Shown piece by piece: positions 15,974-40,417 of a stretch of DNA of 64,000 nt. How positions within the stretch are numbered: position 1 is the stretch's first letter; every line of letters begins with the position of its first letter. The notes beneath the pieces were generated by a model. It saw only the letters and a program-made list of their open reading frames with translations, was not told where the DNA came from and did not search any database. This DNA comes from a virus (Duplodnaviria > Caudoviricetes), in the IMG/VR virus record IMGVR_UViG_3300025892_000008. One strand, written 5' to 3'. Made by a program: the position numbers and the translations under genes.

Positions 15974-16885
15974 TTATGTTCCGATAGCATTACCAAACAA
16001 GTATACATGTACCCTTGCGGCTACATTATATCCACGTTCGAATGCCATCTTAGCAACTGCTCCGGCTGTTGCTGTTTGTTCTTCTTCTCTAGCACCTACA
16101 GGCATAACCCATACAGGATAATTTACACCTTGTGCCTTAAATTGTGAGATAGCATCTTCCATCTCATCCCACTGTTGTTGTTCGGAACCTACAACAAATT
16201 TTAATTGTCCTATAGACAACTTACTATACTGTGCAACTATCTCAGGCTTAATTGCTTTCTTTGCAGCCTCGCCTGCTACACTCCACAGTTTAGGACTTAC
16301 ACTAAAGAACAGTTCGATTTCGTTATCTGCTTCATAAGTCCAGTAATTAATAAATTCTTGTGTTAATGCTTGTGTACCATTAGTTTCAAATGTAACACTA
16401 GCAGGCATATTGCCCATACTCTTAAACTCACGCATGATACCAATGAATGCTTCTTGTCCGTGCTTCATCAACGGCTCACCACCTGTAACACAAAAGTGTT
16501 GTCTTTGTTGTGTAACAGGATGTAGAAACAAACCTTGTGGATTGCTATCTGTTTTAAGTGTATCAATAATTTGTTGTGCTAGTTCAACAGCAGTCTTTTG
16601 ACCCATTAAGTGTTTAAACTTTTTGCTCCATGTGTAACTACTATCACAGCCTTTGTCCCATACAGGCAAATCTTCTACACGTTTTACAGTTGAAGTATCA
16701 AATGTTTCAAACGGCAAATCATATGTATCAGGATTAGTAGGATCAATCTGACCAAATCCGTTACACTGTAAGTTGCATAAGAAAAACCGTATCCAAGCAG
16801 TAGGCACACCTGTATAGTGTCCTTCACCTTGAATACTGTGAAAGATTTCGCTGTAGTAATATTTCTTATCAGTTGCTATTGTCAT
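15974..16885 (-). CDS. queE: 7-carboxy-7-deazaguanine synthase (QueE-like radical SAM)
   Basis: EIFHSIQGEG, WIRFFLCNLQC...GCDS, VTGGEP, FETNG, SVSPK and RVHVYL motifs; start set to ATG 16885 downstream of a sigma70 promoter. Confidence 0.88.
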   Translation of the reverse strand: MTIATDKKYYYSEIFHSIQGEGHYTGVPTAWIRFFLCNLQCNGFGQIDPTNPDTYDLPFETFDTSTVKRVEDLPVWDKGCDSSYTWSKKFKHLMGQKTAVELAQQIIDTLKTDSNPQGLFLHPVTQQRQHFCVTGGEPLMKHGQEAFIGIMREFKSMGNMPASVTFETNGTQALTQEFINYWTYEADNEIELFFSVSPKLWSVAGEAAKKAIKPEIVAQYSKLSIGQLKFVVGSEQQQWDEMEDAISQFKAQGVNYPVWVMPVGAREEEQTATAGAVAKMAFERGYNVAARVHVYLFGNAIGT

Positions 16886-17081
16886 TATGTTTATTATACG
16901 CTTTCTTATTGGATTTGTCAACCTCTTTAGTAAGTGAAAAGGAGCCATCGAAATTGTCTGTCCAAACTAAATCGTCTCCAATATCCCATCCCATTTGGTT
17001 TAGTAACTCAGTGGGAATAGGAAGAACCAAATCCTTCGATTTCGGATCTTCCTTTAATTTGATTTTTTGGGTACTAGTCAC
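16869..17081 (-). CDS. AbrB/MazE/SpoVT-like swapped-hairpin protein
   Basis: DLVLPIPTELLNQMGWDIGDDLVW...DGSFSL; probable GTG start at 17081. Confidence 0.55.
   Translation of the reverse strand: MTSTQKIKLKEDPKSKDLVLPIPTELLNQMGWDIGDDLVWTDNFDGSFSLTKEVDKSNKKAYNKHNDNSN
16893..16921 (-). promoter_or_regulatory. sigma70-type promoter for queE
   Basis: TTGACA-N17-TATAAT. Confidence 0.8.
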
Positions 17082-17283
17082 CAAAATGCTTGTCCAGCAT
17101 TTCGACTCTATCATGTGCAGTTGCCATTTTATCTAACTCTTTTTGGATAGTTTCGATAATATCGCTATGCTCACCAATTCCTACAACCTGTTGCATGTAT
17201 ACTTCAATATTGGCTTTATGCAGATCAATTTCTGCCTCAGCATGCTTCCTTGCTGCATTGATTAATGTTTGTTTCAATGTCAT
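17074..17283 (-). CDS. hypothetical helical protein
   Basis: 69 aa ORF with AAGG SD. Confidence 0.7.
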   Translation of the reverse strand: MTLKQTLINAARKHAEAEIDLHKANIEVYMQQVVGIGEHSDIIETIQKELDKMATAHDRVEMLDKHFGD

Positions 17284-17663
17284 AACCTTTCCTTATAGTT
17301 TTGTTTTGATGGAATTACGCCGCGAACGCCGCCTCTAGGATTCTCCGTATCGCCATCACGACGGAAAATTAAGTGAACATGTGGATAAAGACAAGTTTGT
17401 CCGGCACTCTTGCCCATATTGATACCCACATTGTAACCTGTAATATTGTTATTCTCTGACTTAATGTTGTCATTACCCATAGTAAGAGCAAAATTAAAAC
17501 ACTTTAAAATGTTTTCTTCTGTATTTTGTCTAGGTACAACAAGTGTATGCCCTTCTGTAACAGGATAGATATCGTTATACACAACAAATTCACGTGTATC
17601 AATCTCGACTTGTTTCCAAGGAGCTCTACCATCTTGTTGTGCTATTTCTAAAGTGTCTGTCAT
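17280..17663 (-). CDS. HIT family nucleotide hydrolase (variant triad Y-x-H-x-H)
   Basis: DIYPVTEGHTLVVPR, YNVGINMG and GQTCLYPHVHLIFR. Confidence 0.85.
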   Translation of the reverse strand: MTDTLEIAQQDGRAPWKQVEIDTREFVVYNDIYPVTEGHTLVVPRQNTEENILKCFNFALTMGNDNIKSENNNITGYNVGINMGKSAGQTCLYPHVHLIFRRDGDTENPRGGVRGVIPSKQNYKERL

Positions 17664-18128: not shown

Positions 18129-18358
18129 TAAAATCCTCTACCTTTGTTAATTTGAAATATTCTAGGACCAGGTGTTGTAAATTCAAACCCCATCTTATTA
18201 CCAACATAAACTCTACCGTTATATTCCATATGTATTTTATTTGTTGCTAGAAAGATATCTAGAAACTCTTTTTCTTTAAATCTATCAACTTCTGCCTCTG
18301 CTACTTTGTCATTATCTGTGCAAGTAACTGTGCATACATTATCATGTCCTGTTGGCAT
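18128..18358 (-). CDS. hypothetical protein
   Basis: MPTGHDN... with GGAG SD and TAATG coupling. Confidence 0.65.
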   Translation of the reverse strand: MPTGHDNVCTVTCTDNDKVAEAEVDRFKEKEFLDIFLATNKIHMEYNGRVYVGNKMGFEFTTPGPRIFQINKGRGF

Positions 18359-18915
18359 TAATACTCTCCTACATTTTCCCAAGGATAAACTAACCAAACA
18401 TCTTCCTCAGATTTATTAACTTCATCACAATAGTAATTAACTAAACCAAATTCGCTTGATAAGTTTTCTGTTAATACTGCAAAGCGAACATTATCTCCCC
18501 ATGCTTGATCCCATATAGGCGATTGAGGTAAACAACTGGATTTCCAATCATCTCTAATCCAGTTAAATGTTGCACCAGTATCATTTATATCATCTACAAT
18601 AAGAATGTTTTTGCAATTAGTATCGTGTTTAAACTGCCCCATCTCAGGAGCATAGTCTCCACTATCATCGTAACCATATGCATCTTCGGCCATCCAACAG
18701 TTGCTTTCACTTTCACTAGTATCATCACGTAGACTTACTTTAATCGCTTCGCAACGTATGCCAGTCATGTTACTAATAATAGTAGCAGGAACATTACCAC
18801 CACGTGTAATACCTACAATGTAATCAGGCTTCCAGTTGTCAGCATACATTTTGTTTACAATATTAACGCACATTTTTTCTACGTCAGCCCAACTATAATA
18901 TTTCTTTTTAATCAT
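18358..18915 (-). CDS. type I purine phosphoribosyltransferase (Gpt/Hpt-like)
   Basis: IVGITRGG and PRPP-binding loop ILIVDDINDTGATF; C-terminal WLVYPWE. Confidence 0.85.
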   Translation of the reverse strand: MIKKKYYSWADVEKMCVNIVNKMYADNWKPDYIVGITRGGNVPATIISNMTGIRCEAIKVSLRDDTSESESNCWMAEDAYGYDDSGDYAPEMGQFKHDTNCKNILIVDDINDTGATFNWIRDDWKSSCLPQSPIWDQAWGDNVRFAVLTENLSSEFGLVNYYCDEVNKSEEDVWLVYPWENVGEY

Positions 18916-19387
18916 TGCGTCCTTCCAAATATTTTTCATTATGTACCCAACGGTATCCTAATGTTTTTACAAAAGGTAAAAAGCCCCATTCCTTTTGTTT
19001 CTTGCCCATATAGAACAAACTCCAACAAGGAATCTCTTTACCGTCTTTATCTTCCTTAAGTTTTAGGTAATGCAGATCATCTGATGATCTAAACCTAAAA
19101 TGCCCAGGCCCACGCCATCTTGCTGTGGCTCCTACTACGTTACCTTCTTGACTATAACAAGGAATGTATTCATAGTATCCGCCTTTTAAAATAAGTGTTG
19201 CATACGACCACGGATGATCGTGTAGTACTGACTCATCACTTACCATAACTTTGTGTAGTGTTATGTTAAAAGGAAAGTTCTTTCGTTCCTTTAAAAACAA
19301 ATAATAACGATCAAGATAAGGTATTTTACCATCTCTATCGTATATAGTTCTTTTTCTACCTAACTTATCAAGCAGTTTCAACAACAT
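18908..19387 (-). CDS. cupin-like (double-stranded beta-helix) protein
   Basis: LHDHPWS...GGYYE...LH metal-ligand pattern. Confidence 0.5.
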   Translation of the reverse strand: MLLKLLDKLGRKRTIYDRDGKIPYLDRYYLFLKERKNFPFNITLHKVMVSDESVLHDHPWSYATLILKGGYYEYIPCYSQEGNVVGATARWRGPGHFRFRSSDDLHYLKLKEDKDGKEIPCWSLFYMGKKQKEWGFLPFVKTLGYRWVHNEKYLEGRND

Positions 19388-19775
19388 CAAAAACCTCTTC
19401 CTTTAAATAACGTTTTAACTCACCGTCAATGGGTTGTACGTTATAGTTATCTTTGAAAAATATCTCATAACTATCAGAGCCATATTTTCCAATTCCGTAT
19501 AACATTGTAGCATCATTTCCGTCCCAAGTCAAGTAATCTTTTGACATTCTACGTAGCCGGTGTTCACGTACATTAACCATTCCTAATGGTTTAATAATCA
19601 TTTTAATTGTATCTGGCGCAGTATTAATCAAATGTACTGGTGTAGGACAAATACCAAATAACAAAGGTAATACTCTTTTTACTTGTTTACGGTTTGTTTG
19701 ATTAAGACAGATAACACCTACCATGTGTTGCCAAGAGCCATCAATTTGCTGTTGCACCATAAGTTCGTCTTTCAT
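19368..19775 (-). CDS. HhH-GPD DNA glycosylase, MBD4-like
   Basis: W...ICLNQT...KPLG...LYGIGKYGSDSYEIF closely parallels the MBD4 glycosylase domain. Confidence 0.75.
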   Translation of the reverse strand: MKDELMVQQQIDGSWQHMVGVICLNQTNRKQVKRVLPLLFGICPTPVHLINTAPDTIKMIIKPLGMVNVREHRLRRMSKDYLTWDGNDATMLYGIGKYGSDSYEIFFKDNYNVQPIDGELKRYLKEEVFDVVETA

Positions 19776-19981
19776 CCTAGTGTGACCCAATTACTATGTT
19801 TCGGCTTGAACAAAGAATAAACCTGTTTTACTCTTTTGTTATATTCTTCTTCATTCACCGAAATATTATTTAGGTGTTGTCTCCAAATTCTTTTCATATC
19901 GTCTGAAAGTTTTGGGTTTGCTAGAATTAATTTTAAACTTGCTCTACGCTGAGACTGTTTGATTTCCGAATAAGGTCCCAT
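19772..19981 (-). CDS. hypothetical protein
   Basis: 69 aa ORF. Confidence 0.6.
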   Translation of the reverse strand: MGPYSEIKQSQRRASLKLILANPKLSDDMKRIWRQHLNNISVNEEEYNKRVKQVYSLFKPKHSNWVTLG

Positions 19982-20617: not shown

Positions 20618-21307
20618 TTATTGATTACAAGCATATGATTGTTGAAGTTTAATGTTATCCATAAACTCTTTCTTAGTAGCCGCATCGTCTTTGAATGCAC
20701 CTTTAAGAACAGTTGTTTGTGTAAGACTACTGTGTGCCTTAACACCCCTATTCTCAACACAACCGTGTGTTGCTTGTATATACACACCTAAGTGTTCTGC
20801 ACCTGTTGCTTTTTGTATTTCACGGGTAATATCATTTGCAAGTTCTTCTTGCAATGTACCACGTTCAGCACACCATTGTGCAATACGTGTATACTTAGAC
20901 AAGCCAATTAGTTTGTCTGCGGCAATTATACCAATGTATGCTACGCCTCTTACAATCTGATGATGATGTGAACACATACTTGTTAGTTCTGAACGTACTA
21001 CTAGCATACCTTCATAACGTGAAGCACTGTCATTTGGAAATGCTGTTGCACTAGGAATAGGATCATAACGTCCTGCCATTAGTTCATTGATATACATCTT
21101 TGCAAGACGTTTACCAGTTCCCATACTGTTAGGGTCATTATGCCTGTCAATTACAAGTGCATCTAGTACACCTTCAAACTTCTCGGCGGCTTCGTTGATA
21201 AGTTGTTCTTTTTCGCCTTCAAAAATAAAGTCACTGATATTGTCACCTGCCCAATATCTATTTTCTGTATCTTGTAAGCGTTTTGCTATTTCTTCGTATT
21301 TCTTCAA
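20618..21307 (-). CDS. folE: GTP cyclohydrolase I
   Basis: SMCSHH, GLSKYTRI, LQEEL and HGCVENRGV (Zn ligands C/H/C); TTG start after GGAG. Confidence 0.93.
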   Translation of the reverse strand: MKKYEEIAKRLQDTENRYWAGDNISDFIFEGEKEQLINEAAEKFEGVLDALVIDRHNDPNSMGTGKRLAKMYINELMAGRYDPIPSATAFPNDSASRYEGMLVVRSELTSMCSHHHQIVRGVAYIGIIAADKLIGLSKYTRIAQWCAERGTLQEELANDITREIQKATGAEHLGVYIQATHGCVENRGVKAHSSLTQTTVLKGAFKDDAATKKEFMDNIKLQQSYACNQ

Positions 21308-21346: not shown

Positions 21347-22387
21347 TTAATGTAACACGTCTAGTAAACCTTTGCAACTAAAATAATCTCCATTCAGTTT
21401 GTTTACTTGTTTATTTAGGTCTGGAAGATAGTTTTTATAATTTTCCATGTATTCTGTAATAAGATTCATTACTTTGGGTTTGTTCTTTTTATATGAATCT
21501 AATGAATCTGTCCATTCACTTGGATATTTAAACTTAGGTAATGCCATTTCAGAATAACTTAACCTATCTGGAACCATTGGAATTGCACCAACAATTGCAC
21601 CTTCATACCAACTTATACCTAGTGTTTCTTGTAAGTTGGCACTAAACACAATTTTTGCTTCTCCTAGTAAGTTGTGATATTCGTTCTTTGAAAGATCTCG
21701 TTCTTGACAAACCACAAAGTTATATTGTGGTAATGCTTCTTTCAAGTCTTGGAATATTGATAGTTGTTTTTCAGGAGCAATCCTGTGTGGGAATAATATA
21801 GTATCCTTTTTAGGCATTCCTTTATACATTGTAAGTGTATCTTCCATGTATTCAAAAGGCCAACCTGTTCTTACTATTTTTTGTTTATCTAAATCAGGAA
21901 AGGCTTTAAAGAACATAAGAATATGGAATTCACTTGCAAAGAAATTATGATCAAAACATTCATACATACTTCTTTCAGCATTTCTTACCCAAGGCTTATC
22001 GCCAATTATCCTACCAAGAAAATCAGCAGGATCGTAACTGCCAGCATGCCATAACCCACCAATTCTGATCTTAACATTAAGTAGCTCAGCCATGTATTTA
22101 AGTTGTATAACAGACGGGTTCCAAGCATCTGTATATAGGAAATAATCCCCATCCTTTACTTCTCCTTTGCAAAATGCATCAGCAATCTGCATCAATTGAT
22201 TTGATTTGTAAACATTAGTCCCACCAAAGTTGAGGAACGCACCAGGTGTTGTTGCCTGTGGCGTATCCCCTCCATTGACTACTCGCACTTTATGGCCGTG
22301 AGCTTCTAGCAGTTTAGGAAACTTTGTTTTCCACTGTTTAGTGTATCGTGTTTCTACTGCTTCAAGATCAACTAGCCAAATATTCAT
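21347..22387 (-). CDS. GT-B (GT4-type, retaining) glycosyltransferase inside the deazaguanine cluster
   Basis: FPHRIAPEK and the E-x7-E motif ETLGISWYE, followed by GAIPMVPDRLSY. Confidence 0.8.
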   Translation of the reverse strand: MNIWLVDLEAVETRYTKQWKTKFPKLLEAHGHKVRVVNGGDTPQATTPGAFLNFGGTNVYKSNQLMQIADAFCKGEVKDGDYFLYTDAWNPSVIQLKYMAELLNVKIRIGGLWHAGSYDPADFLGRIIGDKPWVRNAERSMYECFDHNFFASEFHILMFFKAFPDLDKQKIVRTGWPFEYMEDTLTMYKGMPKKDTILFPHRIAPEKQLSIFQDLKEALPQYNFVVCQERDLSKNEYHNLLGEAKIVFSANLQETLGISWYEGAIVGAIPMVPDRLSYSEMALPKFKYPSEWTDSLDSYKKNKPKVMNLITEYMENYKNYLPDLNKQVNKLNGDYFSCKGLLDVLH

Positions 22388-22602: not shown

Positions 22603-23043
22603 CTATCTAGCATACTCAATGTGGGCACCGTTTTCTCCATCTTCACTTACGTCAATATGGACTTCACGGCCTGGGTGTTTAGCAATAATTTGTTCATATA
22701 AATCATCACTCATCATTTCACAACTTTTATAATCTAATTCAATTGTCTTCTCCTCATACAGTTTCTCAAGCCAACGCTTGAATTGGATGAATTCAATATC
22801 TCTGTCGTTGTGTGTAACAGTGATACCTACCTTAAAATGAAATATGTGTCTATGGGGATAACCCAAAAAACTAACATCATATTCATCTCCTGTTGCAAGA
22901 CTAGGATCATCTAGTGCCGCAGGATACTTATGGATACCTTCTTTAGTAAAGGTTACCCAAATCATTCGTTTTGCTGTAGACATAATGCGTCTATGATTGT
23001 CTTCTGCTGTTGCTTCTTTTATCATTGTTTCCATTGTACTCAT
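22603..23043 (-). CDS. QueD-paralogous T-fold protein, DpdL-like (true start probably 23034 or 23025)
   Basis: LGYPHRHIF (LxxxHRHxF rather than the QueD CxxxHGH), IEFI, SCEM and VSEDGENGA. Confidence 0.65.
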   Translation of the reverse strand: MSTMETMIKEATAEDNHRRIMSTAKRMIWVTFTKEGIHKYPAALDDPSLATGDEYDVSFLGYPHRHIFHFKVGITVTHNDRDIEFIQFKRWLEKLYEEKTIELDYKSCEMMSDDLYEQIIAKHPGREVHIDVSEDGENGAHIEYAR

Positions 23044-23073: not shown

Positions 23074-23577
23074 TTAGTCTTTAATATCATCATCGCCATA
23101 TTTGCTCCAATCCGTAAACTTATTGCGTTGTAATAGTGGATGAATATTGTGTACCCATACACCCGGATTAGAATGATCAAAGTCTGCATCATCAATCTTA
23201 ATACAAGCATTGTAGTTAAGTTGATTTACGTATGGCAGTTTAACACTAATCATACTAATAAAGTTATGATTCTCATTAAACCCACTTTCAAGTATCCATT
23301 CATGATACTTTACATCATAGTCTAATGTAACTAAAAATTTCTTATTAAGTAGGCCTTGTACAAGATCTTCCCAACTTTCTTTTGGAACAAAACTGTGATT
23401 AGCACCTAAGTAAATATGGTCAACTGTGTGTTCTTTTGCTTTTGCAAGAACATCTTCTAATGGTTGACATCCTGTTACAAACAGTGTATGCATTTCATAA
23501 GCAGGAGTTTTCTCTACTTCATATCCTGTAAAGTAAGTAACATCTTCTTTTACACCATCTGCATATTCTCGTTTCAT
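23074..23577 (-). CDS. hypothetical protein adjacent to the TGT-like gene
   Basis: 167 aa ORF with HIYLGANHSF, KIDDADF and PGVWVH motifs. Confidence 0.75.
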   Translation of the reverse strand: MKREYADGVKEDVTYFTGYEVEKTPAYEMHTLFVTGCQPLEDVLAKAKEHTVDHIYLGANHSFVPKESWEDLVQGLLNKKFLVTLDYDVKYHEWILESGFNENHNFISMISVKLPYVNQLNYNACIKIDDADFDHSNPGVWVHNIHPLLQRNKFTDWSKYGDDDIKD

Positions 23578-23753
23578 TCAGCGTTTACCTTTTCTAACCT
23601 ATCAATTTGGTCTTTCATTTTTAATCGACTACGTTTCATTTCAGATATTTCTTCATCTGCAAACCTACCGGTTTTTTCCATAGTATCAATTTTTTTATTT
23701 AGGAAATTGTGTGTTTCTTTTAAAACTTTTAGTCTCTGAGTGTAGTCACCCAT
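23574..23753 (-). CDS. small DUF465/YdcH-like coiled-coil protein (59 aa, not in the ORF track)
   Basis: Hand-translated MGDYTQRLKVLKETH...EMKRSRLKMKDQIDRLE; GGAGG SD and ATGA coupling. Confidence 0.65.
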   Translation of the reverse strand: MGDYTQRLKVLKETHNFLNKKIDTMEKTGRFADEEISEMKRSRLKMKDQIDRLEKVNAE

Positions 23754-23754
23754 T

Positions 23755-25302
23755 TTACGCCTCCTGTAGTTGTTGCTCTAGTTTATCTAGTTCACCATCT
23801 TCTCTATCATCTGCCCAAGGTGTTTTTTCTTCACCTTCTTCGTCTACTTCTACAAACATTCTGTTAAACTCATTGGTAACACCACCACGTAGTCTTGCAC
23901 CTTCTAAGTTTTTAAGGAAACTGTCACCTTCTTTAATCATAGCAAACGCTGCTTCTTTAGTAGGCTGTTCGAACAGTTCTTCGACAAATTTATCAAAGTA
24001 TAAAATGTTACGCGGCACCCAATCAGAATATTCATCACTCTTATCTGCTTCTTTTACTTTTCTCCAACTTCTCCAGTCTGGACGATCCTTTGCCAATTCA
24101 ATATCTGTTAAGTTGTTAGCACGTTGTACCGCAACAATATGTTGATAAACGTTATGTGCCATCATTAGTGCATAACCAAAACTATCCCAAGATGTTTTAC
24201 CTTCTTTACCAATCTTGTTTAACATACCTGGAGCATAATGACAAATGTCAGCAATGCTTAGTCGTCTACCAATTTCACTTTCGAAAGGAAAAGGAATATC
24301 GTGCCTCTTGGCAAGTGCTTTGTTATCAGGAGCCTTGTCCATTATAACTGACCATCTCTTACTTGTATGCTGGCTGTTAGTGTACACTAGTCCGTGTGCT
24401 GTAGCAATAAAAGGACTTGCACAATCAAAACTAACTGTAAAGTTCTCATTAATGTGTTTTCTAACCTGTCGTTGAATTGAAGTAAGATAACATGACCAAT
24501 CAAGTTGTGCAGTACCTAAGAAGTGCATCCAGTCCTTGCCTTCTAGCATACCATCAAATTTCATAGTCATTATACGTCTTAGTGTAATAGGCATTTTGCA
24601 CATATTAGCGCCACCCATTGCCCAGCCTTCACAAGCCTTGTCTTTCCATATAGCAGGATCGGAGAATTCTTTAACACCTTCGTACCACCTTTCAGCAGTA
24701 TCCCAGTCTGAACCCTGTAATACATTTAAGAACTTAGTTGCACCAAGTCTGCGCTCTAACCAATATTTGTTATTAAATCTTGTTTTTTCTAAACAATCTT
24801 CAAAACTCTTTAGTCCTGTTTTAGGCGAATGAATATGATCACATGCCCAAGTAGGAACGTCAAGTAGCATACTCCAGTCTGCTGTAAGTTCGAGCCAATT
24901 AAGAATATCTTCTCTAACCTTATTAGCAGCAGGACCTTCAAAGTTTAGCCAATCAAATTTAAGAACACCTTTACCAACTTGATAACCACCTGAGTCACCA
25001 AGTATCATAGTGTTGCCACGATCACGTGTTTGCACCATACTGTCTTGATCCATTGTTTTATCAAGATTTAATTGTGCGTGTCCTGCGGAATACAATCCAT
25101 ATTTGTATGTAAAGTATCCTTCTTCTTCATTTAAAAAGTTCATACCTTCGATGCCGCGATCAAAGCCTTGCGGAATACGGTCAGTTGGAACGAACTCTTG
25201 CTTACGTTGTTTAGCAATATAAGTGCTGAAGAAAGAACTAATAGCAGGCAAATACACTGCGTAGTCTTTCTGTAATGGTGTTAAGTTGACTGGTTTTTTC
25301 AT
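23755..25302 (-). CDS. dpdA: tRNA-guanine transglycosylase-fold protein, probable DNA 7-deazaguanine transglycosylase (DpdA-like)
   Basis: GDSGGYQ, LLDVP, VLQG, WAMGG, HFLG, FDCASP and AHN motifs; co-located with folE/queE and directly downstream of the clamp and polymerase. Confidence 0.75.
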   Translation of the reverse strand: MKKPVNLTPLQKDYAVYLPAISSFFSTYIAKQRKQEFVPTDRIPQGFDRGIEGMNFLNEEEGYFTYKYGLYSAGHAQLNLDKTMDQDSMVQTRDRGNTMILGDSGGYQVGKGVLKFDWLNFEGPAANKVREDILNWLELTADWSMLLDVPTWACDHIHSPKTGLKSFEDCLEKTRFNNKYWLERRLGATKFLNVLQGSDWDTAERWYEGVKEFSDPAIWKDKACEGWAMGGANMCKMPITLRRIMTMKFDGMLEGKDWMHFLGTAQLDWSCYLTSIQRQVRKHINENFTVSFDCASPFIATAHGLVYTNSQHTSKRWSVIMDKAPDNKALAKRHDIPFPFESEIGRRLSIADICHYAPGMLNKIGKEGKTSWDSFGYALMMAHNVYQHIVAVQRANNLTDIELAKDRPDWRSWRKVKEADKSDEYSDWVPRNILYFDKFVEELFEQPTKEAAFAMIKEGDSFLKNLEGARLRGGVTNEFNRMFVEVDEEGEEKTPWADDREDGELDKLEQQLQEA

Positions 25303-25310
25303 AATGTTAT

Positions 25311-26048
25311 TTAGGCCGCCTGTGCTGGAATGATATATTTGTAATTTGCTAATCCACTATCTAGTGTAATTTGAATAGCACCTTCGTTTGAAATACTCAT
25401 CTTAGTATTATTAACATCAGCAATTTTAAGGATAGCAAGAATACTAGCCACTGGCCAAGTCCAACCTTTATCTAATGTACCTTCAACATTTTGTGCGAAT
25501 ACAAATTCACCACCATGTGTACTTGCATCACCAAAGATAAACTTCAAGTTATTATCTTCAGTTTTTGCTAAGAACGTTGGATGTTCAGGATTAGCGCCTG
25601 CTTGGAAACTAAACCTTTGTACTGCTGGCAAAGTTGGAGTTACCTCAACATTCCAGTTAACACCACGAAACTTAACAGTTTTCATTTTTTCGTTAATAAT
25701 TTCTTGATTCATAAAACGATAGTCGTTTTTAAAATCACCATCAGCATTTTCAAAATGAATACCTACTGGAATAGTAGCACCATTTCTTTCAGCATTTGTA
25801 ATAGTAATTTTTGCATCCTTTTGATATTCAGTACCATCAATTAAGTATTTCAACTTATTAAGTTGAGGCATACCAAATGTACCAATCATATCTGGATACG
25901 GGTTATGTGTGTCTGCTTCCATAATAACTGATCTGTCATCAGCCATTGAAAACATTCCTGTCTTATCTTCTTCGCCAGATACCTTAACAGTTGTTAGGAA
26001 ACCTAAGTTCTGTGTGTGGCTGACGATATCTTGTAAAATGTCTTTCAT
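25311..26048 (-). CDS. DNA polymerase sliding clamp (gp45-like)
   Basis: 245 aa acidic beta-rich protein immediately downstream of polB; size and synteny fit. Confidence 0.6.
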   Translation of the reverse strand: MKDILQDIVSHTQNLGFLTTVKVSGEEDKTGMFSMADDRSVIMEADTHNPYPDMIGTFGMPQLNKLKYLIDGTEYQKDAKITITNAERNGATIPVGIHFENADGDFKNDYRFMNQEIINEKMKTVKFRGVNWNVEVTPTLPAVQRFSFQAGANPEHPTFLAKTEDNNLKFIFGDASTHGGEFVFAQNVEGTLDKGWTWPVASILAILKIADVNNTKMSISNEGAIQITLDSGLANYKYIIPAQAA

Positions 26049-26106: not shown

Positions 26107-28770
26107 TTACTCAAAATCAAATAAACTGTTAAAGTTATTATCATTACGTGTTTGACTTATGTCCCATTCCAAAACGCCAATTAAGTTTTTAAGTTTTTCA
26201 TCGATAACTGTGTTTTCCATAGTAGCATCATCGAATGGTAACTCTTTGAACCAATCCGGAAGTCTTAGTTCGTCAACCGGATATGCTACACTGGTGTAAG
26301 CCATTGGATTATCTTTAACCTTACATACAATAACTTTTGCACCATCTGTTATGTTTACTGAGTACTTGTCGCCGTTCATACGTTTAAGTGTATTCCAATT
26401 GATACTTGCTCTTACGTGTCCAGGCATATTCACCTTACCTGCTTTCTTTTCCTTTGCTCCATACTCTGTAATCTTATTTGCACGCTTAGGAGAACCTTTC
26501 TCCCAACCTGGACGTGACTTAAACTCTGTTCTAAATTCAGTAATGTAGTCTAGTACATCTTCTTTGTCTTTACCTGCTAGTACCATTTCTAATACATTAC
26601 TCAAAAAGTCTTGAATAACAACAGGAGTATCAGAACGTTTCAAGTCTAAGCCCATTGCTTTAATCTTGCCTGCCTTGCCTTCTGTATCTGTTCTAAATCC
26701 TTCAATGTCATAGTATAACACTGCATAACGTTTCTTTGTAATAAACAGACCTTTACTTGCAACAATCTCTCTAGCAGCCGCAATAACTTCGGAACGTTTT
26801 TTAGGACAATGAAATGCTTGGCTCATAAACTTAGGAAATGTTGCATTAGCATTTTCGCCGATTGTATCATATAGTTCTATAACGCTGTCTTTTGTCCACG
26901 GAATACTACCTGCTTCAATATCTTTTTTCAGTGTGCTATACGCACTGAAGTATGTAGAGTCAGTGTCACCATAAACAATTGCTTTGCCTGTATGATCATA
27001 TTCGCCTGTTACTATCTCATTGATCTTAGCAGCCATATGTTTTGTGATACTTCTTCCTGTAAGTGTAACACTTTGACCGATCCTATTATCGAAAAACCTA
27101 CAACCAGGATTAAGAATAGCGCCATACAAACTGTTAAGTAGAATTTTCTTAACCAACTGTCGCTTTGCCCAGTATTCTTCTTCAATTTTGTTTCCTGCAT
27201 TTTGACTTTCTTTCTGTTTAGCCTGCATTTCTTTACGTTCTTTGTACCAACGTGCAAGTAGTCCAGGAATAATACCTTCTTTTTCGTATGTAAAGATTGT
27301 ACCATTAGCACTTAGCATCCAAGGTTGATTGCTTTCGTAGATTAAATCATATATCTGTGCGGCACTAAGTTTGTCATTGTCGCCATTTTCCCAGTCGACA
27401 GTAATCTCTCTGCTAATCTCTTTGTCCATTACAGAACTATATTCAACACTACCAAACATACCTTCCCATGCACTTGCAAATGATTTGCCCTTTGCCATCT
27501 GTCCATCGATATGTGCTTTTGTTCCTTCTTGACGTAGTTGTCCGACTACAGTCTCAGGACCCATATTCAATGCTCTAATAACAGACGGATACAGTGAATT
27601 CAAGTCAACACTGCCAATCCATTCATGAATACCTTTTTTAGGATAAGCAACATAAGCACCTGCCGCAGGCTCACTGCCTGGCTCACGTTTTACTCTGTTC
27701 GGAACAATCATTCCACGTCTGTGTGCTTCGTTGATAATACCTTGTTCTGTAACTGCAACAGCACCCATTGTTGTTTGTATAAGAACTGTGTTTTCATGTG
27801 CAATAGTATTTGCAAGATCGATAAACTTTAGTTTCTTGTCTAGTTTGTCAAGTAGTGCAGTATCTTGTCTATTGTATTCGATGAATGTTCTAAAGTCGTT
27901 GTTGTATAGTGCATCAAGACTACCTTCATAAACAGTTTTCTTTTCACCTACTTCTAGTTCACCAATAGCATCTAGTCTGTATGTATGGCGTTCTTCATAG
28001 TTGTACTTACGATATAGTTCTAAACTATCTACGTGTACACGACCAATTAGATCATATGTTTGTGATTCCTTACCAAACTTTTCATATATTCTTTTCTTAG
28101 GCTTTTGATCCCACAAGCACAAGCGTCTAGTATCATCTGCGCTTAATACTTTAATGATACGGTTAACAGTGTAAGGCATATCATAACCTTCACTGTTCCA
28201 ACCACTTAGTACATCAGCATCTTGAATAAGATCTAAAAAAGCATCAAGCATATCTGCTTCATTGTCATACAGTATTGTATTTGGAATACCTTCAATTGCT
28301 TTTTGTGCTTCTGCCATTGAAAGTGTCTTAGGAGGAATAGCCAAACAAATAAGTTCATCTAGCCACTGTAAATGCACAGCAATTGATGTAATAGGCATAA
28401 ACGCATCTTCTGGACTTGCGTACCCACGCTCAGGATCAAAGTCAACCTCGATATCCCAAAACGCTACATTTAGTTTAGGAGCATCAACGTTTAAATAGTT
28501 GTCTTCTAAACAGCGATAAATTGGATTTATATCGCTTTCATATAATTTATGATTAGAATGAATTGCAAGTTCCTTGCGCAATTCCTTAATGTTTTTTGCA
28601 GTTACACGCTGTAAAGGATCACCGTAAATAGATTGATGTTTGCCTCTTGGGTCTTTATAATAAAATACGTGTCTTGGGGAATATTCTGTAAAATGTCTTT
28701 TATTGTTTTTTCTTTCTACTACTCGAATAGTATCTTCACTTCGATCATAGAATGCATCTACGTAACTCAT
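26107..28770 (-). CDS. family B DNA polymerase (T4 gp43-like)
   Basis: Exonuclease motifs DIEVD, GWNSEGYD and YNRQD; polymerase motifs DLNSLYPS, KILLNSLYG and YGDTDS; ATG 28770 with AGGAG SD. Confidence 0.95.
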   Translation of the reverse strand: MSYVDAFYDRSEDTIRVVERKNNKRHFTEYSPRHVFYYKDPRGKHQSIYGDPLQRVTAKNIKELRKELAIHSNHKLYESDINPIYRCLEDNYLNVDAPKLNVAFWDIEVDFDPERGYASPEDAFMPITSIAVHLQWLDELICLAIPPKTLSMAEAQKAIEGIPNTILYDNEADMLDAFLDLIQDADVLSGWNSEGYDMPYTVNRIIKVLSADDTRRLCLWDQKPKKRIYEKFGKESQTYDLIGRVHVDSLELYRKYNYEERHTYRLDAIGELEVGEKKTVYEGSLDALYNNDFRTFIEYNRQDTALLDKLDKKLKFIDLANTIAHENTVLIQTTMGAVAVTEQGIINEAHRRGMIVPNRVKREPGSEPAAGAYVAYPKKGIHEWIGSVDLNSLYPSVIRALNMGPETVVGQLRQEGTKAHIDGQMAKGKSFASAWEGMFGSVEYSSVMDKEISREITVDWENGDNDKLSAAQIYDLIYESNQPWMLSANGTIFTYEKEGIIPGLLARWYKERKEMQAKQKESQNAGNKIEEEYWAKRQLVKKILLNSLYGAILNPGCRFFDNRIGQSVTLTGRSITKHMAAKINEIVTGEYDHTGKAIVYGDTDSTYFSAYSTLKKDIEAGSIPWTKDSVIELYDTIGENANATFPKFMSQAFHCPKKRSEVIAAAREIVASKGLFITKKRYAVLYYDIEGFRTDTEGKAGKIKAMGLDLKRSDTPVVIQDFLSNVLEMVLAGKDKEDVLDYITEFRTEFKSRPGWEKGSPKRANKITEYGAKEKKAGKVNMPGHVRASINWNTLKRMNGDKYSVNITDGAKVIVCKVKDNPMAYTSVAYPVDELRLPDWFKELPFDDATMENTVIDEKLKNLIGVLEWDISQTRNDNNFNSLFDFE

Positions 28771-28783
28771 TTTTTCTCCTATA

Positions 28784-28829
28784 TGCAATTTCAGGCTTGC
28801 AAATACCAATGTGTCGCTTAATGGCCGAC
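28784..28829 (-). promoter_or_regulatory. two hairpins immediately upstream of the polB SD (candidate translational operator)
   Basis: UGCAA/UUGCA stem at 28784-28801 and GUCG/CGAC stem at 28813-28829. Confidence 0.4.
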
Positions 28830-30265: not shown

Positions 30266-30799
30266 TTACTTGTAGATTTTCCAACCATTTTTATCAACTA
30301 AATTCAAAATAAATATTTTTTCTTTGTTGTAGTCGTGTTGTCCTTTGTTTCTGGTTTCGTAGAATGTTCTAGTTTCTTTAAAATCAAAACCAAAAATATT
30401 AACTTGTTTATTATTCGTTTCACTTAGATAATACAAAACCTGTAATCCTGTAGATGGTGGCGCATTAAGATTATTTTCTAACCATTGTGATTGAAACAAA
30501 GGTAAGATTATTCTTTTTGCTTTAAATTTTGCTTTTTTTATTTTATATTCCAATTCCTTTTTAGTAGGAGTGAATATTAAAGTATGGAATTTTGGTGTTT
30601 CAGAATTATATTTTTCAAAAGTGTTTACTTCACTTGAAGCCAAAAAGTCCCAACGACTTCCTTGAGATTCTTCATTAATTATACCTGCTCGATTAAATCT
30701 TACAGTAGGAAGACTATCAATAATGTGTCCGTTAGTTTTTGAAAATATACTTTCTGCGTTGCCAATTACATTTAAAGCCTGATTTAAATCTGTTAACAT
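30266..30799 (-). CDS. GT29 (sialyltransferase)-like protein
   Basis: VIGNA...G..ID...VRFN (sialylmotif L-like), PSTG (S-like), IFGFDF and H.Y..EK (VS-like). Confidence 0.55.
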   Translation of the reverse strand: MLTDLNQALNVIGNAESIFSKTNGHIIDSLPTVRFNRAGIINEESQGSRWDFLASSEVNTFEKYNSETPKFHTLIFTPTKKELEYKIKKAKFKAKRIILPLFQSQWLENNLNAPPSTGLQVLYYLSETNNKQVNIFGFDFKETRTFYETRNKGQHDYNKEKIFILNLVDKNGWKIYK

Positions 30800-32303: not shown

Positions 32304-33560
32304 CTATTTCTTTTTACCTGACTTCATATTAGCACACCAGTGATACATTTTAGCCTTCTCACCGCTTGCGTTTTTAGCCTTCTTACGCAACGATGTTACA
32401 CTACCATTGCAACTTGCACCTGATTTTTTTACTCTTCCGGGTCTACTTTTACCCTTCTTTTTACCGTCAGCAAAGTTTTCTTCTATATGTTCTCTTACTA
32501 GATGTTGAAAATTTTCTTCTATTTCTGCTTTTAATTTTTTGGCAGTTCTTTCAAACTTATGATCTTTATGTTTGAACCCTATGCCTCCGGCACTTTCCCA
32601 CGCTGCAATGTTAACACCATAATCGTCTATAAGGATATTAGGTGTGCCGTCGGGGTTAGTTGCATACTTCGCCTTATCCTTAGTTATGATGACTTCAGTT
32701 GGTGGAAAGAAGTCTAGGTTCTTTTCAATCCACTCGCGTTTATGCGGTTCTGAGTTAGGGTCATTTGCCAGTGGAGAACTTAGAATCTTGTAGTCACCTT
32801 TAACTTGTTTAATAATACCAAGTAGGTTTTTTGCATTTGCTGTTAGAGGAATGTTTAACCAAAATTCATCCTCATCTCTAATTTTTTTAAGTGCTGGTTC
32901 AATTTCATCTTTACCTAGTTCGCGCCAGTCCTTGCCAACCAACTTCTTCCACTCGCCAAAGAAGTCTGCTAGGACACCGTCCATGTCTACATAAATTTCT
33001 GATTTAGGGTTAAGCCCTTGAAACATATCTTCATATGTTTTCTTTTTCTTTTTCTTGGGGAATAATTTCTTAACGTTCATATACTCGCCACCTACGGGAA
33101 CGTCTGCGGTAGCATTTTGTTTTGTTACAATACCAACACCTGCTGCTTCTTCACCGTGATACTCTTGCTTGTGTTGTTCGCTTTCATCTGGAACTTCGTC
33201 TGTAAATGTTACAAATTTCTCCGGAACAACTACTGCTTCCATACTATCTACTTTTGCTATTCTTGCAGCAAAGTATCTATGATGTCCGTCCAGTATAAGA
33301 TACTTGCCGTCTTTTGGTGTAACTATAATTGGTTTTATTTCTTCGCCTGCTTTGATTTTATCCGCAAACTTCTTCATATTGTCTGCAGATTTTTTACCCT
33401 TCATTTTATCTGCTGGCTCAAATGGTTCCAGTTTATCAAAGTCTATTTGTTGTGAAGATTTTGAATTCCAGTATTTGTCATCTAGTGTAGCACCCTGATA
33501 GGAAGGATCCGTGTATACGGTTATTTCTTTTTCTTCTATAAGGAACTGGTGCGCTCTCAT
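32304..33560 (-). CDS. fusion of a ParB/Srx-like domain, a HAD 5'-nucleotidase-like domain and a basic Cys-containing tail
   Basis: PIIV...ILDGHHRYFAA; YVDMDGVLADF...ILIDDYGVN; starts MRAHQFLIE. Confidence 0.8.
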   Translation of the reverse strand: MRAHQFLIEEKEITVYTDPSYQGATLDDKYWNSKSSQQIDFDKLEPFEPADKMKGKKSADNMKKFADKIKAGEEIKPIIVTPKDGKYLILDGHHRYFAARIAKVDSMEAVVVPEKFVTFTDEVPDESEQHKQEYHGEEAAGVGIVTKQNATADVPVGGEYMNVKKLFPKKKKKKTYEDMFQGLNPKSEIYVDMDGVLADFFGEWKKLVGKDWRELGKDEIEPALKKIRDEDEFWLNIPLTANAKNLLGIIKQVKGDYKILSSPLANDPNSEPHKREWIEKNLDFFPPTEVIITKDKAKYATNPDGTPNILIDDYGVNIAAWESAGGIGFKHKDHKFERTAKKLKAEIEENFQHLVREHIEENFADGKKKGKSRPGRVKKSGASCNGSVTSLRKKAKNASGEKAKMYHWCANMKSGKKK

Positions 33561-37428: not shown

Positions 37429-38106
37429 TTATCGGTTTAATATATATTTGAAAACCTTGCCTATTAAGTTAGGTGCTCGTAATTGTAACATTAATAATGT
37501 ATTATCATCCGCTACTTGGATGTATCTTCTATCGTAATTTTCACTTGTAACAACTAACCATCTATAAACACTTTCAGTAAATGTAACGTTAGGAACCTGT
37601 TTAGACAACCAGTCAGCCACACTTTTTCTTGAACTAGCATCTAGTTTATGCGGGTGTAAGTATACTCGGTATTGATATTTGTTATAAGGTAACTCATTAA
37701 CATAAATTTTCTTATTACTATTCAAGATAGTGTTTTCTGTACCTTGTTTAGGTTGGGCTCTATACTTTACATATTCTGTAAATTCTTTACCTAATTGATC
37801 ATATAGATTAAAATTATTAGTGTATAAGTCAATATAATTACCTTCTAATCTTTTACCAAAGGATTTACTATCAAATGCATTTAACATCAAGCAAAGTTTT
37901 ATCCAACTTTCGTGATTTTCAGTTACATCTTCCACAACATCTTTACGCCAAGGTTCTTGATCTTTAAATCCATTCTGACATATATCTAACAGTTGAGAAA
38001 AATTATACCAGCGTAATGCGCTTGCACCCGGCATTCTCAGAGTAATTTTATAAATGTATTTGTTATAAAATTTCTTTTTAGTTGTCTTGGCTGTCGGCAG
38101 TTTCAT
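37429..38106 (-). CDS. hypothetical protein
   Basis: 225 aa ORF. Confidence 0.7.
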   Translation of the reverse strand: MKLPTAKTTKKKFYNKYIYKITLRMPGASALRWYNFSQLLDICQNGFKDQEPWRKDVVEDVTENHESWIKLCLMLNAFDSKSFGKRLEGNYIDLYTNNFNLYDQLGKEFTEYVKYRAQPKQGTENTILNSNKKIYVNELPYNKYQYRVYLHPHKLDASSRKSVADWLSKQVPNVTFTESVYRWLVVTSENYDRRYIQVADDNTLLMLQLRAPNLIGKVFKYILNR

Positions 38107-40417
38107 TTTCAGGCTTCTTTGCTGCTGCTTTTGCTGCTTTACGTTCTGCTTTAGTTAAGATTTTAGGAGCAGGAGCAAATGCAAACACGGGTTTATCATT
38201 GTCAATTGTTACATTAACTATTCCGCCATCTACTAATTCACCAAATAAAACTTGCTTACTGAGTGGTGTTTTAATTTCTGCATCTATCAATCTACCTAAC
38301 GGCCTAGCACCCATTTTCTTACTATACCCTTTTCCTGCTAACCATGAAATAGTTTCTTCATTTAGTTTGATAGTAATGTTTTTATCTTTTACTTGACCAT
38401 TAAGTTCTTTAATAAATTTTAAAACAATTTCTTTTACAACAGATTTTGATAACTTGCCAAACTTAACAGTAGCATCTAGTCTATTTCTAAACTCTGGAGC
38501 AAAAAAGTTTTTAACTGCTTTTTCATCTTCATCAAATCTTTCTAGGTCATCAAATCCAATAGTATTATTTTCGTTATCAGCAGCACCTAAGTTACTAGTC
38601 ATAATGAGTATACTATTTCTACCATCTGCTTGTTTACCATTTGATCCTGTTACAAAACCATTATCCATAAACTGTAACAAAATATTAGACACATCTTGAT
38701 GTGCTTTTTCTATTTCGTCAAGTAGTAATATAGCATTAGGTGTTTCTTGTAATTTAGTAATCAACTGTCCTGCATTTTCATCAAAGCCTACATATCCTGG
38801 AGGCGCACCAATTAATCTTGCAACACTATGCTTCTCTTGATACTCACTCATATCGAATCGTATCAATGACATGCCCATCTTTTCTGCAAGTTGTTTTGCT
38901 GTTTCTGTTTTACCACAGCCTGTAGGACCTAAGAATAAAAAACTACCAATAGGCTTATCAGGGGACTTTAGTCCTGCTTGTGCAACAAAAATTTTATCAA
39001 GTAATTTATCTACTGCATCATCTTGACCAAAAATACTTTTCTTCATAGCCGGTTCAAGATTATGTAAATTTTTACTTTCTTTCTGTGCTACTGTTTCTAA
39101 AGGCATTTTAATCATTTTAGATAATTCATAAGTAACTTGTTCTACATCAACTACTTGTGTAATACCTTCTTCAACAGGATCATCGTTTAGTTTATAACGT
39201 GCAGAAGCACAGTCAATAATATCGATGGCTTTATCAGGAAGTTTTTTATCTGATATGTATTTTATAGATAATTTTACAGCCTGTTCAATTGCTTCAGATG
39301 TAATATTAACATTATGATGTTGCTCATAGTATTTTTTCAAACCTTTAAGTATTTTAATTGTTACTTCTGCTGTAGGCTCGTCAACTGTTACACGTTGGAA
39401 TCTACGCATTAATGCACGATCCTTTTCAAAGTACTTGCGATACTCTTCCCAAGTAGTTGAAGCAATAACTTTCATACCACCTTTACTTAATGCTGGCTTT
39501 AACATATTTGCTAAATCATTTGAACTTTGACTTGCTGTACCTGCGCCTGACATCATATGTGCTTCATCTATGAATAAGATAATTTTACCTTTTCTTTCTA
39601 GAGCACCTAAGACTGCTTTAATTCTTTCTTCAAAATCACCTCTGTATTTAGAGCCAGCAACTAATGATCCTATATCTAAATTATATACTGTATGATCTTG
39701 TATAAATTTAGGTACTTTCTTTTCGTGTATCTTACGTGCTAGTCCTTCTGCAATAGCAGTTTTACCAACACCTGGATCTCCTACCATTAATACATTTGAC
39801 TTAGTTCTACGTGCTAATACAAGTTCAATATCTTCTAACTCGGGATCTCTTCCAATTACAGGATCAATTGTTTTTTGTTTAGCCTTCAATGATAGGTTAT
39901 CACAAAATTGATTTATTATTTTATCTAATTGATCATTTGTAAGGGGTCCTGACCCGCTTTCGTTTTCAAAAAATTCATCTTCTTCAATATAATGTTTTTG
40001 AAAGTGCTGAACAAATTTTTCTTTTATAATCCCGCCTTTTGTTAAGAAGTAAAAAGCAAAACTATTTTTTTCGGATAGTACACTAACTATAACATCAGCA
40101 ATTTCCATTTGGTTTCTACCGCTGAATAATACTTGTGTAAAGCATCTATTCAGTACACGTTCTACACTGTTAGTTTTCCTAGGTAGTGTGTTATCATTAG
40201 ATTCGATATCTTTTAAATTGTTTTTCAAGTAATGATCAAGATTAGATTTTATATAATCAACATCAGCACCGTATTCCTTCAGACCTGCTGATGACTCTTT
40301 ATCGGCAACAATTGCAAAAATAAGATGTTCTAATGTAATTAATCTATGTTTGTAGGATTTGGTTATTTCTACAGAACTATCGAAAATCTTTTGTAATTGT
40401 TTACTTGGCTCAATCAT
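38078..40417 (-). CDS. clpA: ClpA-type AAA+ unfoldase
   Basis: Clp N-domain (ITLEHL); GDPGVGKT/FIDEAH; GPTGCGKT/LLDEIEK; IGF loop; MGARPL; no ClpB middle domain. Confidence 0.92.
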   Translation of the reverse strand: MIEPSKQLQKIFDSSVEITKSYKHRLITLEHLIFAIVADKESSAGLKEYGADVDYIKSNLDHYLKNNLKDIESNDNTLPRKTNSVERVLNRCFTQVLFSGRNQMEIADVIVSVLSEKNSFAFYFLTKGGIIKEKFVQHFQKHYIEEDEFFENESGSGPLTNDQLDKIINQFCDNLSLKAKQKTIDPVIGRDPELEDIELVLARRTKSNVLMVGDPGVGKTAIAEGLARKIHEKKVPKFIQDHTVYNLDIGSLVAGSKYRGDFEERIKAVLGALERKGKIILFIDEAHMMSGAGTASQSSNDLANMLKPALSKGGMKVIASTTWEEYRKYFEKDRALMRRFQRVTVDEPTAEVTIKILKGLKKYYEQHHNVNITSEAIEQAVKLSIKYISDKKLPDKAIDIIDCASARYKLNDDPVEEGITQVVDVEQVTYELSKMIKMPLETVAQKESKNLHNLEPAMKKSIFGQDDAVDKLLDKIFVAQAGLKSPDKPIGSFLFLGPTGCGKTETAKQLAEKMGMSLIRFDMSEYQEKHSVARLIGAPPGYVGFDENAGQLITKLQETPNAILLLDEIEKAHQDVSNILLQFMDNGFVTGSNGKQADGRNSILIMTSNLGAADNENNTIGFDDLERFDEDEKAVKNFFAPEFRNRLDATVKFGKLSKSVVKEIVLKFIKELNGQVKDKNITIKLNEETISWLAGKGYSKKMGARPLGRLIDAEIKTPLSKQVLFGELVDGGIVNVTIDNDKPVFAFAPAPKILTKAERKAAKAAAKKPENETADSQDN

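Follow-up and report, generated by a model that had tools for sequence, protein, structure and literature searches.

The 64,000-nucleotide stretch analysed here (hereafter, the window) comes from a virus of the class Caudoviricetes (IMG/VR record IMGVR_UViG_3300025892_000008) and carries a gene, P0001, whose product is very probably a DpdA-type transglycosylase acting on guanine in DNA. The protein appears to represent a large unnamed subfamily that is sister to DpdA2, and it is predicted to be tethered to the sliding clamp of the phage. DpdA is treated as the signature gene of 7-deazaguanine DNA. The start codon of P0001 can be considered sound, since the N-terminus is conserved among close homologues from residue 1 onwards.

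23755..25302, minus strand: gene P0001, DpdA-like transglycosylase with the tRNA-guanine transglycosylase (TGT) fold; open reading frame (ORF) of 515 amino acids (aa), translation free of stops.

The AlphaFold2 model of P0001, built from an alignment of 70 sequences, has a predicted local distance difference test (pLDDT) score of 92.2 and a predicted template modelling (pTM) score of 0.91, with disorder confined to residues 471–501 and pLDDT values below 50 at residues 471–486. A Foldseek search of this model against the PDB returned the Zymomonas mobilis TGT for all of the top 50 matches (E about 2e-9). Exhaustive structural alignment against 48,161 PDB representatives filled the top five places with members of the TGT superfamily: archaeosine TGT (1iq8, Z 17.3, root mean square deviation (rmsd) 4.8, 297 aligned residues), QTRT2 (6fv5, Z 16.0), bacterial TGT (3unt, Z 15.6), the DNA preQ0 insertase DpdA (7ui4, Z 15.2), and Cap10 (9ntn, Z 13.9); unrelated TIM barrels reached a Z of 11.5 at most. 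Matches in BFVD included the homologue from Vibrio phage 2.275.O, a 'tRNA guanine transglycosylase' of phage Motura, the DpdA2 of Vibrio phage nt-1, and the DpdA3 of Cellulophaga phage phiST (E 4.7e-4). A reading of the letters alone, made earlier and referred to below as the sequence-only reading, had proposed a TGT-fold, DpdA-type enzyme, and the model agrees, matching well only structures of the TGT superfamily. By its predicted structure, which is decisive here, P0001 is a TGT-fold TIM barrel of the TGT/DpdA superfamily.

The motifs named in that reading, DSGG (residues 103–106), LLD (146–148), QG (196–197), GG (230–231), HFLG (260–263), FD (292–293), and AHN (382–384), are all present and conserved in an alignment of 70 homologues with 25–86% identity. 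They occupy the most conserved columns of this alignment and are not chance occurrences. Residues D103, S104, G106, P150, H260, and D293 are invariant, and D148 (69 of 70), N384 (65 of 70), G197 (63 of 70), G231 (61 of 70), and Q196 (57 of 70) are nearly so, as are G226 and L262/G263; H383 is retained in 59 of 70. When the family profile was aligned with the Zymomonas TGT, DSGG corresponded to D102, LLD to D156, QG to Q203, GWAxGG to G229/G230, and the AHN histidine to the zinc ligand H349. Three aspartates are reported to be invariant in TGT and DpdA and needed for guanine exchange (PMC10164549); their predicted counterparts in P0001 are encoded as follows.

24994..24996, minus strand: codon for D103 (DSGG motif), predicted to serve as general acid/base (D102 in Z. 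mobilis TGT, D95 in Salmonella DpdA); invariant in 70 of 70 homologues and aligned to TGT D102, with the role taken from PMC10164549.
24859..24861, minus strand: codon for D148 (LLD motif), predicted to recognise the base (TGT D156, DpdA D130); aligned to the FDE of TGT and DpdA2.
24424..24426, minus strand: codon for D293 (SFD motif), predicted to act as nucleophile (TGT D280, DpdA D256); 70 of 70 homologues, aligned to the invariant aspartate of the DpdA2 motif SYDS.

The zinc site is conserved in bacterial DpdA and TGTs (PMC10164549). As the sequence-only reading had observed, P0001 lacks the CxCxxC motif and retains the AHN histidine, and this extends to the family as a whole: the motif occurs neither in P0001 nor in any of the 271 members examined, and the remnants of the region are H383 and C354, the sole partly conserved cysteine (42 of 70). 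CxCxxC is likewise missing from the sequences that were checked for other types, namely the DpdA1 of phage 9g, the DpdA2 of five phages, and the DpdA3 of phiST, so its loss does not define a new subfamily. Nor is the length of P0001 distinctive. The protein is indeed much longer than a bacterial TGT, the additional residues forming a helical extension (about 400–470) and an acidic disordered tail, but DpdA2 proteins already have 403–464 aa, and 515 aa is only modestly above this range.

P0001 thus has in common with bacterial DpdA (Salmonella Montevideo, 7ui4) and TGTs the TIM-barrel fold (Z 15.2–17.3), the three catalytic aspartates, and a histidine on the last barrel helix. Unlike them, it has no CxCx2Cx22H zinc site, no match to PF01702 or to the DpdA model of PADLOC, and only 11–16% sequence identity, and it carries a tail resembling a clamp-binding peptide; no DpdB-type ATPase partner was evident, though none was searched for.

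A tblastn search of 50,697 phage records yielded 13 matches, namely eleven Pseudomonas jumbo phages of the PA5oct group (41% identity), together with Sinorhizobium phage Phosso and Vibrio phage 2.275.O, and all 13 homologues are labelled 'hypothetical protein'. The homologue in PA5oct itself, a cultivable phage, is EST35_0316, with 41% identity. A megablast search of the P0001 gene against phage genomes gave no match. In metagenomes the family is large, with at least 7,705 proteins at E ≤ 0.001 (among 8,000 scored) falling into 877 clusters at 50% identity.

The nearest named relatives of this family, as judged from sequence profiles, are the DpdA2 proteins. DpdA2 proteins, 7-deazaguanine transglycosylases of phage DNA (Hutinet 2019; Cui 2023), are known from Acidovorax phage ACP17, from the Vibrio phages nt-1 and VH7D, and from other phages. 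DpdA3, represented by CGPG_00065 of Cellulophaga phage phiST and by Campylobacter phages, is associated with complete replacement of G. The DpdL-like neighbour of P0001 served as a bridge to the phiST DpdA3 and the ACP17 DpdA, the latter of which groups with the DpdA2 of phage nt-1. When the family was compared by hhalign with DpdA2, represented by five proteins, the match was 97.4% (E 1.5e-11) over 190 columns, spanning residues 97–309 of P0001 from DSGG to FD. Against the single phiST DpdA3 sequence the corresponding values were 66% and E 5.5e-5 over 83 columns, and BLASTP of P0001 against the same protein returned nothing. Neither the family nor DpdA2 gave anything significant with the single DpdA1 sequence of phage 9g, a null result that says little, given the low power of a template made of one sequence.

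A profile hidden Markov model (HMM) of the family assigned 537 bits to the PA5oct protein, at least 140 to family members, 11–32 to DpdA2, 7 to DpdA3, and 2 to DpdA1. On a maximum-likelihood tree, which covered five DpdA2 sequences and had outgroups on long branches, the 38 family rows and the five DpdA2 rows each formed one side of a branch, with support values of 89 and 100 in the Shimodaira–Hasegawa-like approximate likelihood ratio test (SH-aLRT). The family is accordingly placed as a distinct unnamed clade of DpdA type, nearest to DpdA2 and not nested in a characterised one. The sequence-only reading had likewise suggested a distinct DpdA subfamily; this part of it stands on the clade itself, whereas the arguments it drew from zinc loss and length are weak, the loss being shared with DpdA1, DpdA2, and DpdA3 and the length exceeding that of DpdA2 only modestly. 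The structure prediction and phylogeny it had called for confirmed the TGT fold and showed no nesting inside a characterised DpdA or TGT clade, with five DpdA2 sequences sampled.

One could still regard P0001 as a plain DpdA2, a long and fast-evolving member requiring no separate subfamily. DpdA2 is its best profile match, and the likenesses are numerous: the TGT-fold core with the motifs DSGG, (F/L)D, QG, HxLG, and S(Y/F)D; the absence of CxCxxC; the failure of the Pfam TGT model to detect either group; a helical C-terminal extension, the DpdA2 proteins having 400–460 aa; occurrence in large T4-like or jumbo phages near FolE, QueD, and QueE, at times with DpdL and a glycosyltransferase; and a C-terminal tail similar to the clamp-binding peptide of the polymerase. 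However, homology is detectable only at residues 97–309, leaving the N-terminal 96 and the C-terminal 200 residues of P0001 unaligned, DpdA2 scores far below family members with the family HMM, and the branch between the two groups on the tree measures about 3 substitutions per site. In addition, a tblastn search with the ACP17 DpdA2 matched 71 phage records, and no PA5oct-group phage, Phosso, or 2.275.O was among the 60 matches listed. The position of the tail motif also differs, since in P0001 it lies inside an acidic tail and is followed by a terminal helix, whereas in DpdA2 it is at the extreme C-terminus. Judged from the five DpdA2 sequences sampled, assignment of P0001 to DpdA2 itself is therefore regarded as unlikely. 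The phiST DpdA3 resembles P0001 in being divergent, zinc-free, and missed by Pfam, and in standing with DpdL and a QueC-less pathway to 7-carboxy-7-deazaguanine (CDG) beside polymerase genes; unlike P0001, it is half the size (259 aa), its alignment misses DSGG and FD, and no clamp-type tail was seen in it.

The nearest characterised relatives of P0001 act on DNA: when tested in E. coli, the DpdA2 of phages VH7D and nt-1 placed preQ0, preQ1, or CDG in the DNA (PMC10516641). The tail of P0001 and the two genes upstream of it point in the same direction.

23848..23880, minus strand: clamp-binding-like peptide TNEFNRMFVEV, residues 475–485 of P0001, in the disordered acidic tail; resembles the C-terminal end NNFNSLFDFE of the polymerase.
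25311..26048, minus strand: sliding clamp, 245 aa, directly upstream of the DpdA-like gene; AlphaFold2 pLDDT 84, top 38 fold matches all sliding clamps.
26107..28809, minus strand: family B DNA polymerase (PolB) with a C-terminal tail ending in NNFNSLFDFE; Pfam DNA_pol_B 8e-34, exonuclease domain 1e-16.

The clamp model matched PCNA with a Z of 17.0 and the T4 clamp gp45 (6drt) with a Z of 16.7 (rmsd 3.0 over 212 residues). Within a given phage, the tail of the DpdA protein and that of the polymerase are alike: NEFNRMF and NNFNSLF in the window, NSFNSLF and HFDSLF in PA5oct, terminal NNNDLFGW and NNTDLFDW in 2.275.O, and terminal TTLDELFE and PSLDDLFE in ACP17, where the first protein is a DpdA2; such a likeness was also found in a metagenomic contig. 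Among 112 full-length family representatives, 52 have the motif [FYLIMVW]xx[LMF]F within their C-terminal 70 residues, as compared with 18 +/- 3.7 (maximum 30) for shuffled tails and 2–10 for other 70-residue windows of the same proteins. A clamp homologue lies just upstream of the family gene in six contexts; in Phosso, the 'virion structural protein' encoded upstream of the DpdA-like gene was not recognised as a clamp homologue by the clamp HMM. Prediction of a complex between the clamp trimer and residues 462–515 of P0001 scored 0.65, against 0.18 for the best of three controls, with runs agreeing in at least 88% of contacts and a partner pLDDT of at least 56, and it placed residues 475–492 of P0001 on the interdomain loop and the C-terminus of the clamp. 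On the basis of these models, the tail of P0001 probably docks on the phage sliding clamp by mimicking the clamp-binding tail of the polymerase. A literature search for the sliding clamp together with DpdA, and for the name 'DpdA5', found no relevant paper.

The DpdA1 of phage 9g ends in RLQDLFDE, which is similar to a beta-clamp-binding peptide, and its gene directly follows a phage beta-type clamp gene (positions 3007–3960 and 2006–2998 of the 9g locus). Because of this tail and gene order, the idea of a clamp tether may extend to DpdA1. More broadly, one could hypothesise that the DpdA-type enzymes of the P0001 family, of DpdA2, and perhaps of DpdA1 are passengers of the replisome, whose tails co-vary with the clamp-binding peptide of their own polymerase and which would travel on the sliding clamp and replace guanine right behind the fork; we hold this proposition to be evenly balanced. 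If true, it would define a new class of clamp client, and a clamp tether, if real, would explain how guanine is efficiently replaced genome-wide after replication.

The same evidence bears on whether P0001 could be a TGT in the literal sense, acting on host or phage tRNA rather than on DNA. It shares its fold and catalytic residues with tRNA TGTs, and an archaeosine TGT is the top structural match. Nevertheless, there are no tRNA genes in the window, the gene is embedded among replisome genes and its relatives follow a clamp gene in the six contexts mentioned above, and the protein carries a polymerase-like, putative clamp-binding tail, has no PUA or other tRNA-binding C-terminal domain, and lacks the zinc subdomain. 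Moreover, the nearest characterised relatives act on DNA, and the DNA of PA5oct itself resists restriction. A tRNA substrate is thus considered highly improbable.

Downstream of P0001, the window contains several genes that can be linked to 7-deazaguanine bases.

22603..23043, minus strand: DpdL-like T-fold protein (proposed CDG decarboxylase family); phmmer matches to the DpdL of PA5oct, ACP17, and phiST at 3e-44, 3e-37, and 8e-15, with tblastn matches.
21347..22387, minus strand: glycosyltransferase-like gene, between DpdL and FolE; phmmer matches to the neighbours in Phosso, PA5oct, and ACP17 at 4e-101 to 5e-67.
20618..21307, minus strand: GTP cyclohydrolase I (FolE); Pfam 4e-37, PHROG 1e-43.
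15974..16948, minus strand: QueE-like radical SAM enzyme (CDG synthase); phmmer matches to PA5oct QueE at 5e-50 and 9g QueE at 2e-11, Fer4_12 at 2e-4.

DpdL is defined in PMC10516641. The glycosyltransferase neighbours of Phosso, PA5oct, and ACP17 have weak matches to Glycos_transf_1. The order of genes in the window, PolB, clamp, the DpdA-like gene, two small ORFs, DpdL-like, glycosyltransferase, and FolE, with a phosphoribosyltransferase, a HIT-family protein, and QueE further on, is the same in PA5oct and in one metagenomic contig. In this contig, a GHMP kinase gene and a sugar nucleotidyltransferase gene come after that of the glycosyltransferase (contig positions 10819–13509), and the three make up a self-contained sugar-activation module, which fits a glycosylated base. 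The two small ORFs of the window (23074–23753, minus strand; about 59 and 167 aa), between the DpdA-like and DpdL-like genes, are uncharacterised and have no family matches; the 167-aa ORF (23074–23577) showed no similarity to the Phosso 'glycosylase' encoded at the same position.

Other members of the family occur in different surroundings. In Vibrio phage 2.275.O, the genes accompanying the family member are those of QueF, of a YhhQ-type transporter, of a 'queuosine biosynthesis protein' by annotation, which is probably QueC, of an amidotransferase-like protein, and of FolE. Further members belong to small integrase-bearing phages with zero pathway genes. In Phosso, about 170 kb separate the DpdA-like gene (3968–5617 of the locus examined) from the block of PolB, clamp, DpdL, glycosyltransferase, FolE, and QueE genes, but its neighbours there, a primase and a helicase, again belong to the replisome. 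Because these contexts vary between DpdL/FolE/QueE and QueF with the probable QueC, the family is tied to several kinds of 7-deazaguanine pathway, and the gene context hints that it is not bound to one base, which bears on the different base or sequence specificity that the sequence-only reading had thought possible. In the window and in PA5oct, DpdL, FolE, and QueE accompany the gene and QueC does not. For the pathway in the window, with DpdL and no QueC, the inserted base would be 7-deazaguanine (DG) or CDG, following PMC10516641.

Between QueE and FolE, on the minus strand, are also the phosphoribosyltransferase gene (18358–18939), the HIT-family gene (17280–17663), and a gene for a small protein similar to HhH-GPD glycosylases (19368–19790). 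Synechococcus phage BUCT-ZZ01 has a similar phosphoribosyltransferase in its own deazaguanine cluster; the enzyme of the window could recycle the guanine freed by base exchange or belong to a route operating at the nucleotide level. Upstream of PolB, positions 32304–33560 of the minus strand encode a 418-aa protein in which a region similar to the ParB N-terminus is joined to an NT5C deoxynucleotidase domain.

Several results weigh against the interpretation of P0001 as a DpdA-type enzyme tethered to the clamp. Searches of P0001 against Pfam (E ≤ 0.01), PHROGs, NCBIfam, and PADLOC (E ≤ 1, including its DpdA model) found no family match. Against PDB sequences, the family profile reached an E of about 1, which is not significant alone, with TGT being the sole family to recur. 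With the libraries empty and the profile at this level, sequence methods by themselves miss a significant link to TGT. The same insensitivity was seen for related proteins and other searches: PF01702, the Pfam TGT model, detected nothing in the PA5oct, ACP17, nt-1, and phiST genomes at E ≤ 10, a DpdA2 profile found nothing in the PDB, and phmmer with P0001 against the PDB gave chance matches only (VemP, a phosphatase). Among the catalytic residues, D293 is equated with the TGT nucleophile by its position and through DpdA2, with no direct alignment to TGT. About half of the family representatives, including those of the small integrase-bearing phages, are without the strict tail motif. The complex prediction departed from its calibration in using custom alignments and a trimer of the clamp; in that calibration, 58 of 80 solved complexes attained the mark, as did 2 of 110 mismatched pairs. 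Because complexes of clamps with peptides, such as T4 gp45 (6drt), have already been solved, passing this mark may reflect likeness to them and not binding. Finally, phmmer with phage references found no QueD, QueC, QueF, or YhhQ in the 64-kb window. QueD is far from the cluster in PA5oct, Phosso, and 2.275.O, and by analogy with these phages it is assumed to lie outside the window here as well.

The phosphoribosyltransferase, HIT, and NT5C-like genes also count on this side, since they leave room for a route in which the polymerase incorporates deazaguanine nucleotides into DNA. The role of P0001 would then lie elsewhere, for example in base exchange on free nucleotides, in excision of guanine only, or in salvage, and the phosphoribosyltransferase of the BUCT-ZZ01 cluster agrees with such a scheme. 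However, the three aspartates of double-displacement base exchange are conserved in the family, DpdA is present in every phage known to carry 7-deazaguanines and post-replicative insertion has been argued for (PMC10516641), a clamp-binding tail is sensible only for an enzyme working on DNA, and the phosphoribosyltransferase could equally recycle the released guanine. Entry at the nucleotide level is therefore judged very improbable.

Taking P0001 as a clamp-tethered DpdA-type transglycosylase, we infer that it acts on DNA and would proceed by the following mechanism. D293 would attack C1' of a deoxyguanosine in the phage DNA, and D103, acting as the general acid/base, would expel guanine; the covalent intermediate would then be resolved by a free 7-deazaguanine base bound through D148, Q196/G197, and G230/G231, all of this presumably in an enzyme without a structural zinc site. 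The base would be supplied by the FolE, QueD, QueE, and DpdL-like genes of the phage itself; in this phage it would most likely be 7-deazaguanine or CDG, possibly further tailored by the neighbouring glycosyltransferase. The peptide in the disordered acidic C-terminal tail would dock the enzyme on the sliding clamp, so that it could act on freshly replicated DNA.

The DNA of PA5oct resists five restriction enzymes in a pattern suggesting modified G, and nucleases sensing modified G restrict this phage (PMC12191111); the same work names a QueE and a PTPS gene for PA5oct and no transglycosylase. A 'deazaguanine synthesis/incorporation system' is mentioned for PA5oct in a passage of Iyer et al. 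(PMC7824862). Recognition of the P0001 family would supply the missing insertase, as predicted here, for the modified G inferred in PA5oct. Because Pfam, PHROGs, NCBIfam, and PADLOC all miss the family, and because GenBank labels its members 'hypothetical' in therapeutic jumbo phages of the PA5oct type, surveys of modified phage DNA undercount it. The variety of its contexts, with DpdL and a glycosyltransferase in some phages and with QueF and a probable QueC in another, makes the family suited to studying shifts in base specificity.

The window has a GC content of 35%, and nearly every gene past 11.6 kb is carried by the minus strand. It looks like a portion of a large phage distantly related to T4: besides the family B polymerase, whose best matches are the polymerases of jumbo phages, namely Phosso (50%), Atu_ph07 (47%), and Vibrio phage 2.275.O (44%), it codes for a T4 DsbA-like regulator, a ClpB-like ATPase, and a peptide deformylase. 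The gene of the double AAA+ chaperone of ClpB/ClpA type is full-length (38078–40417, minus strand) and overlaps the start of the peptide deformylase gene (40410–40943, minus strand), an unusual pairing in a phage. A 177-aa protein encoded at 30266–30799 of the minus strand weakly resembles the sialyltransferases of glycosyltransferase family 29 (E 3e-5), and the end of the window is occupied by a very long ORF of 2,251 aa (57154–63909, minus strand).

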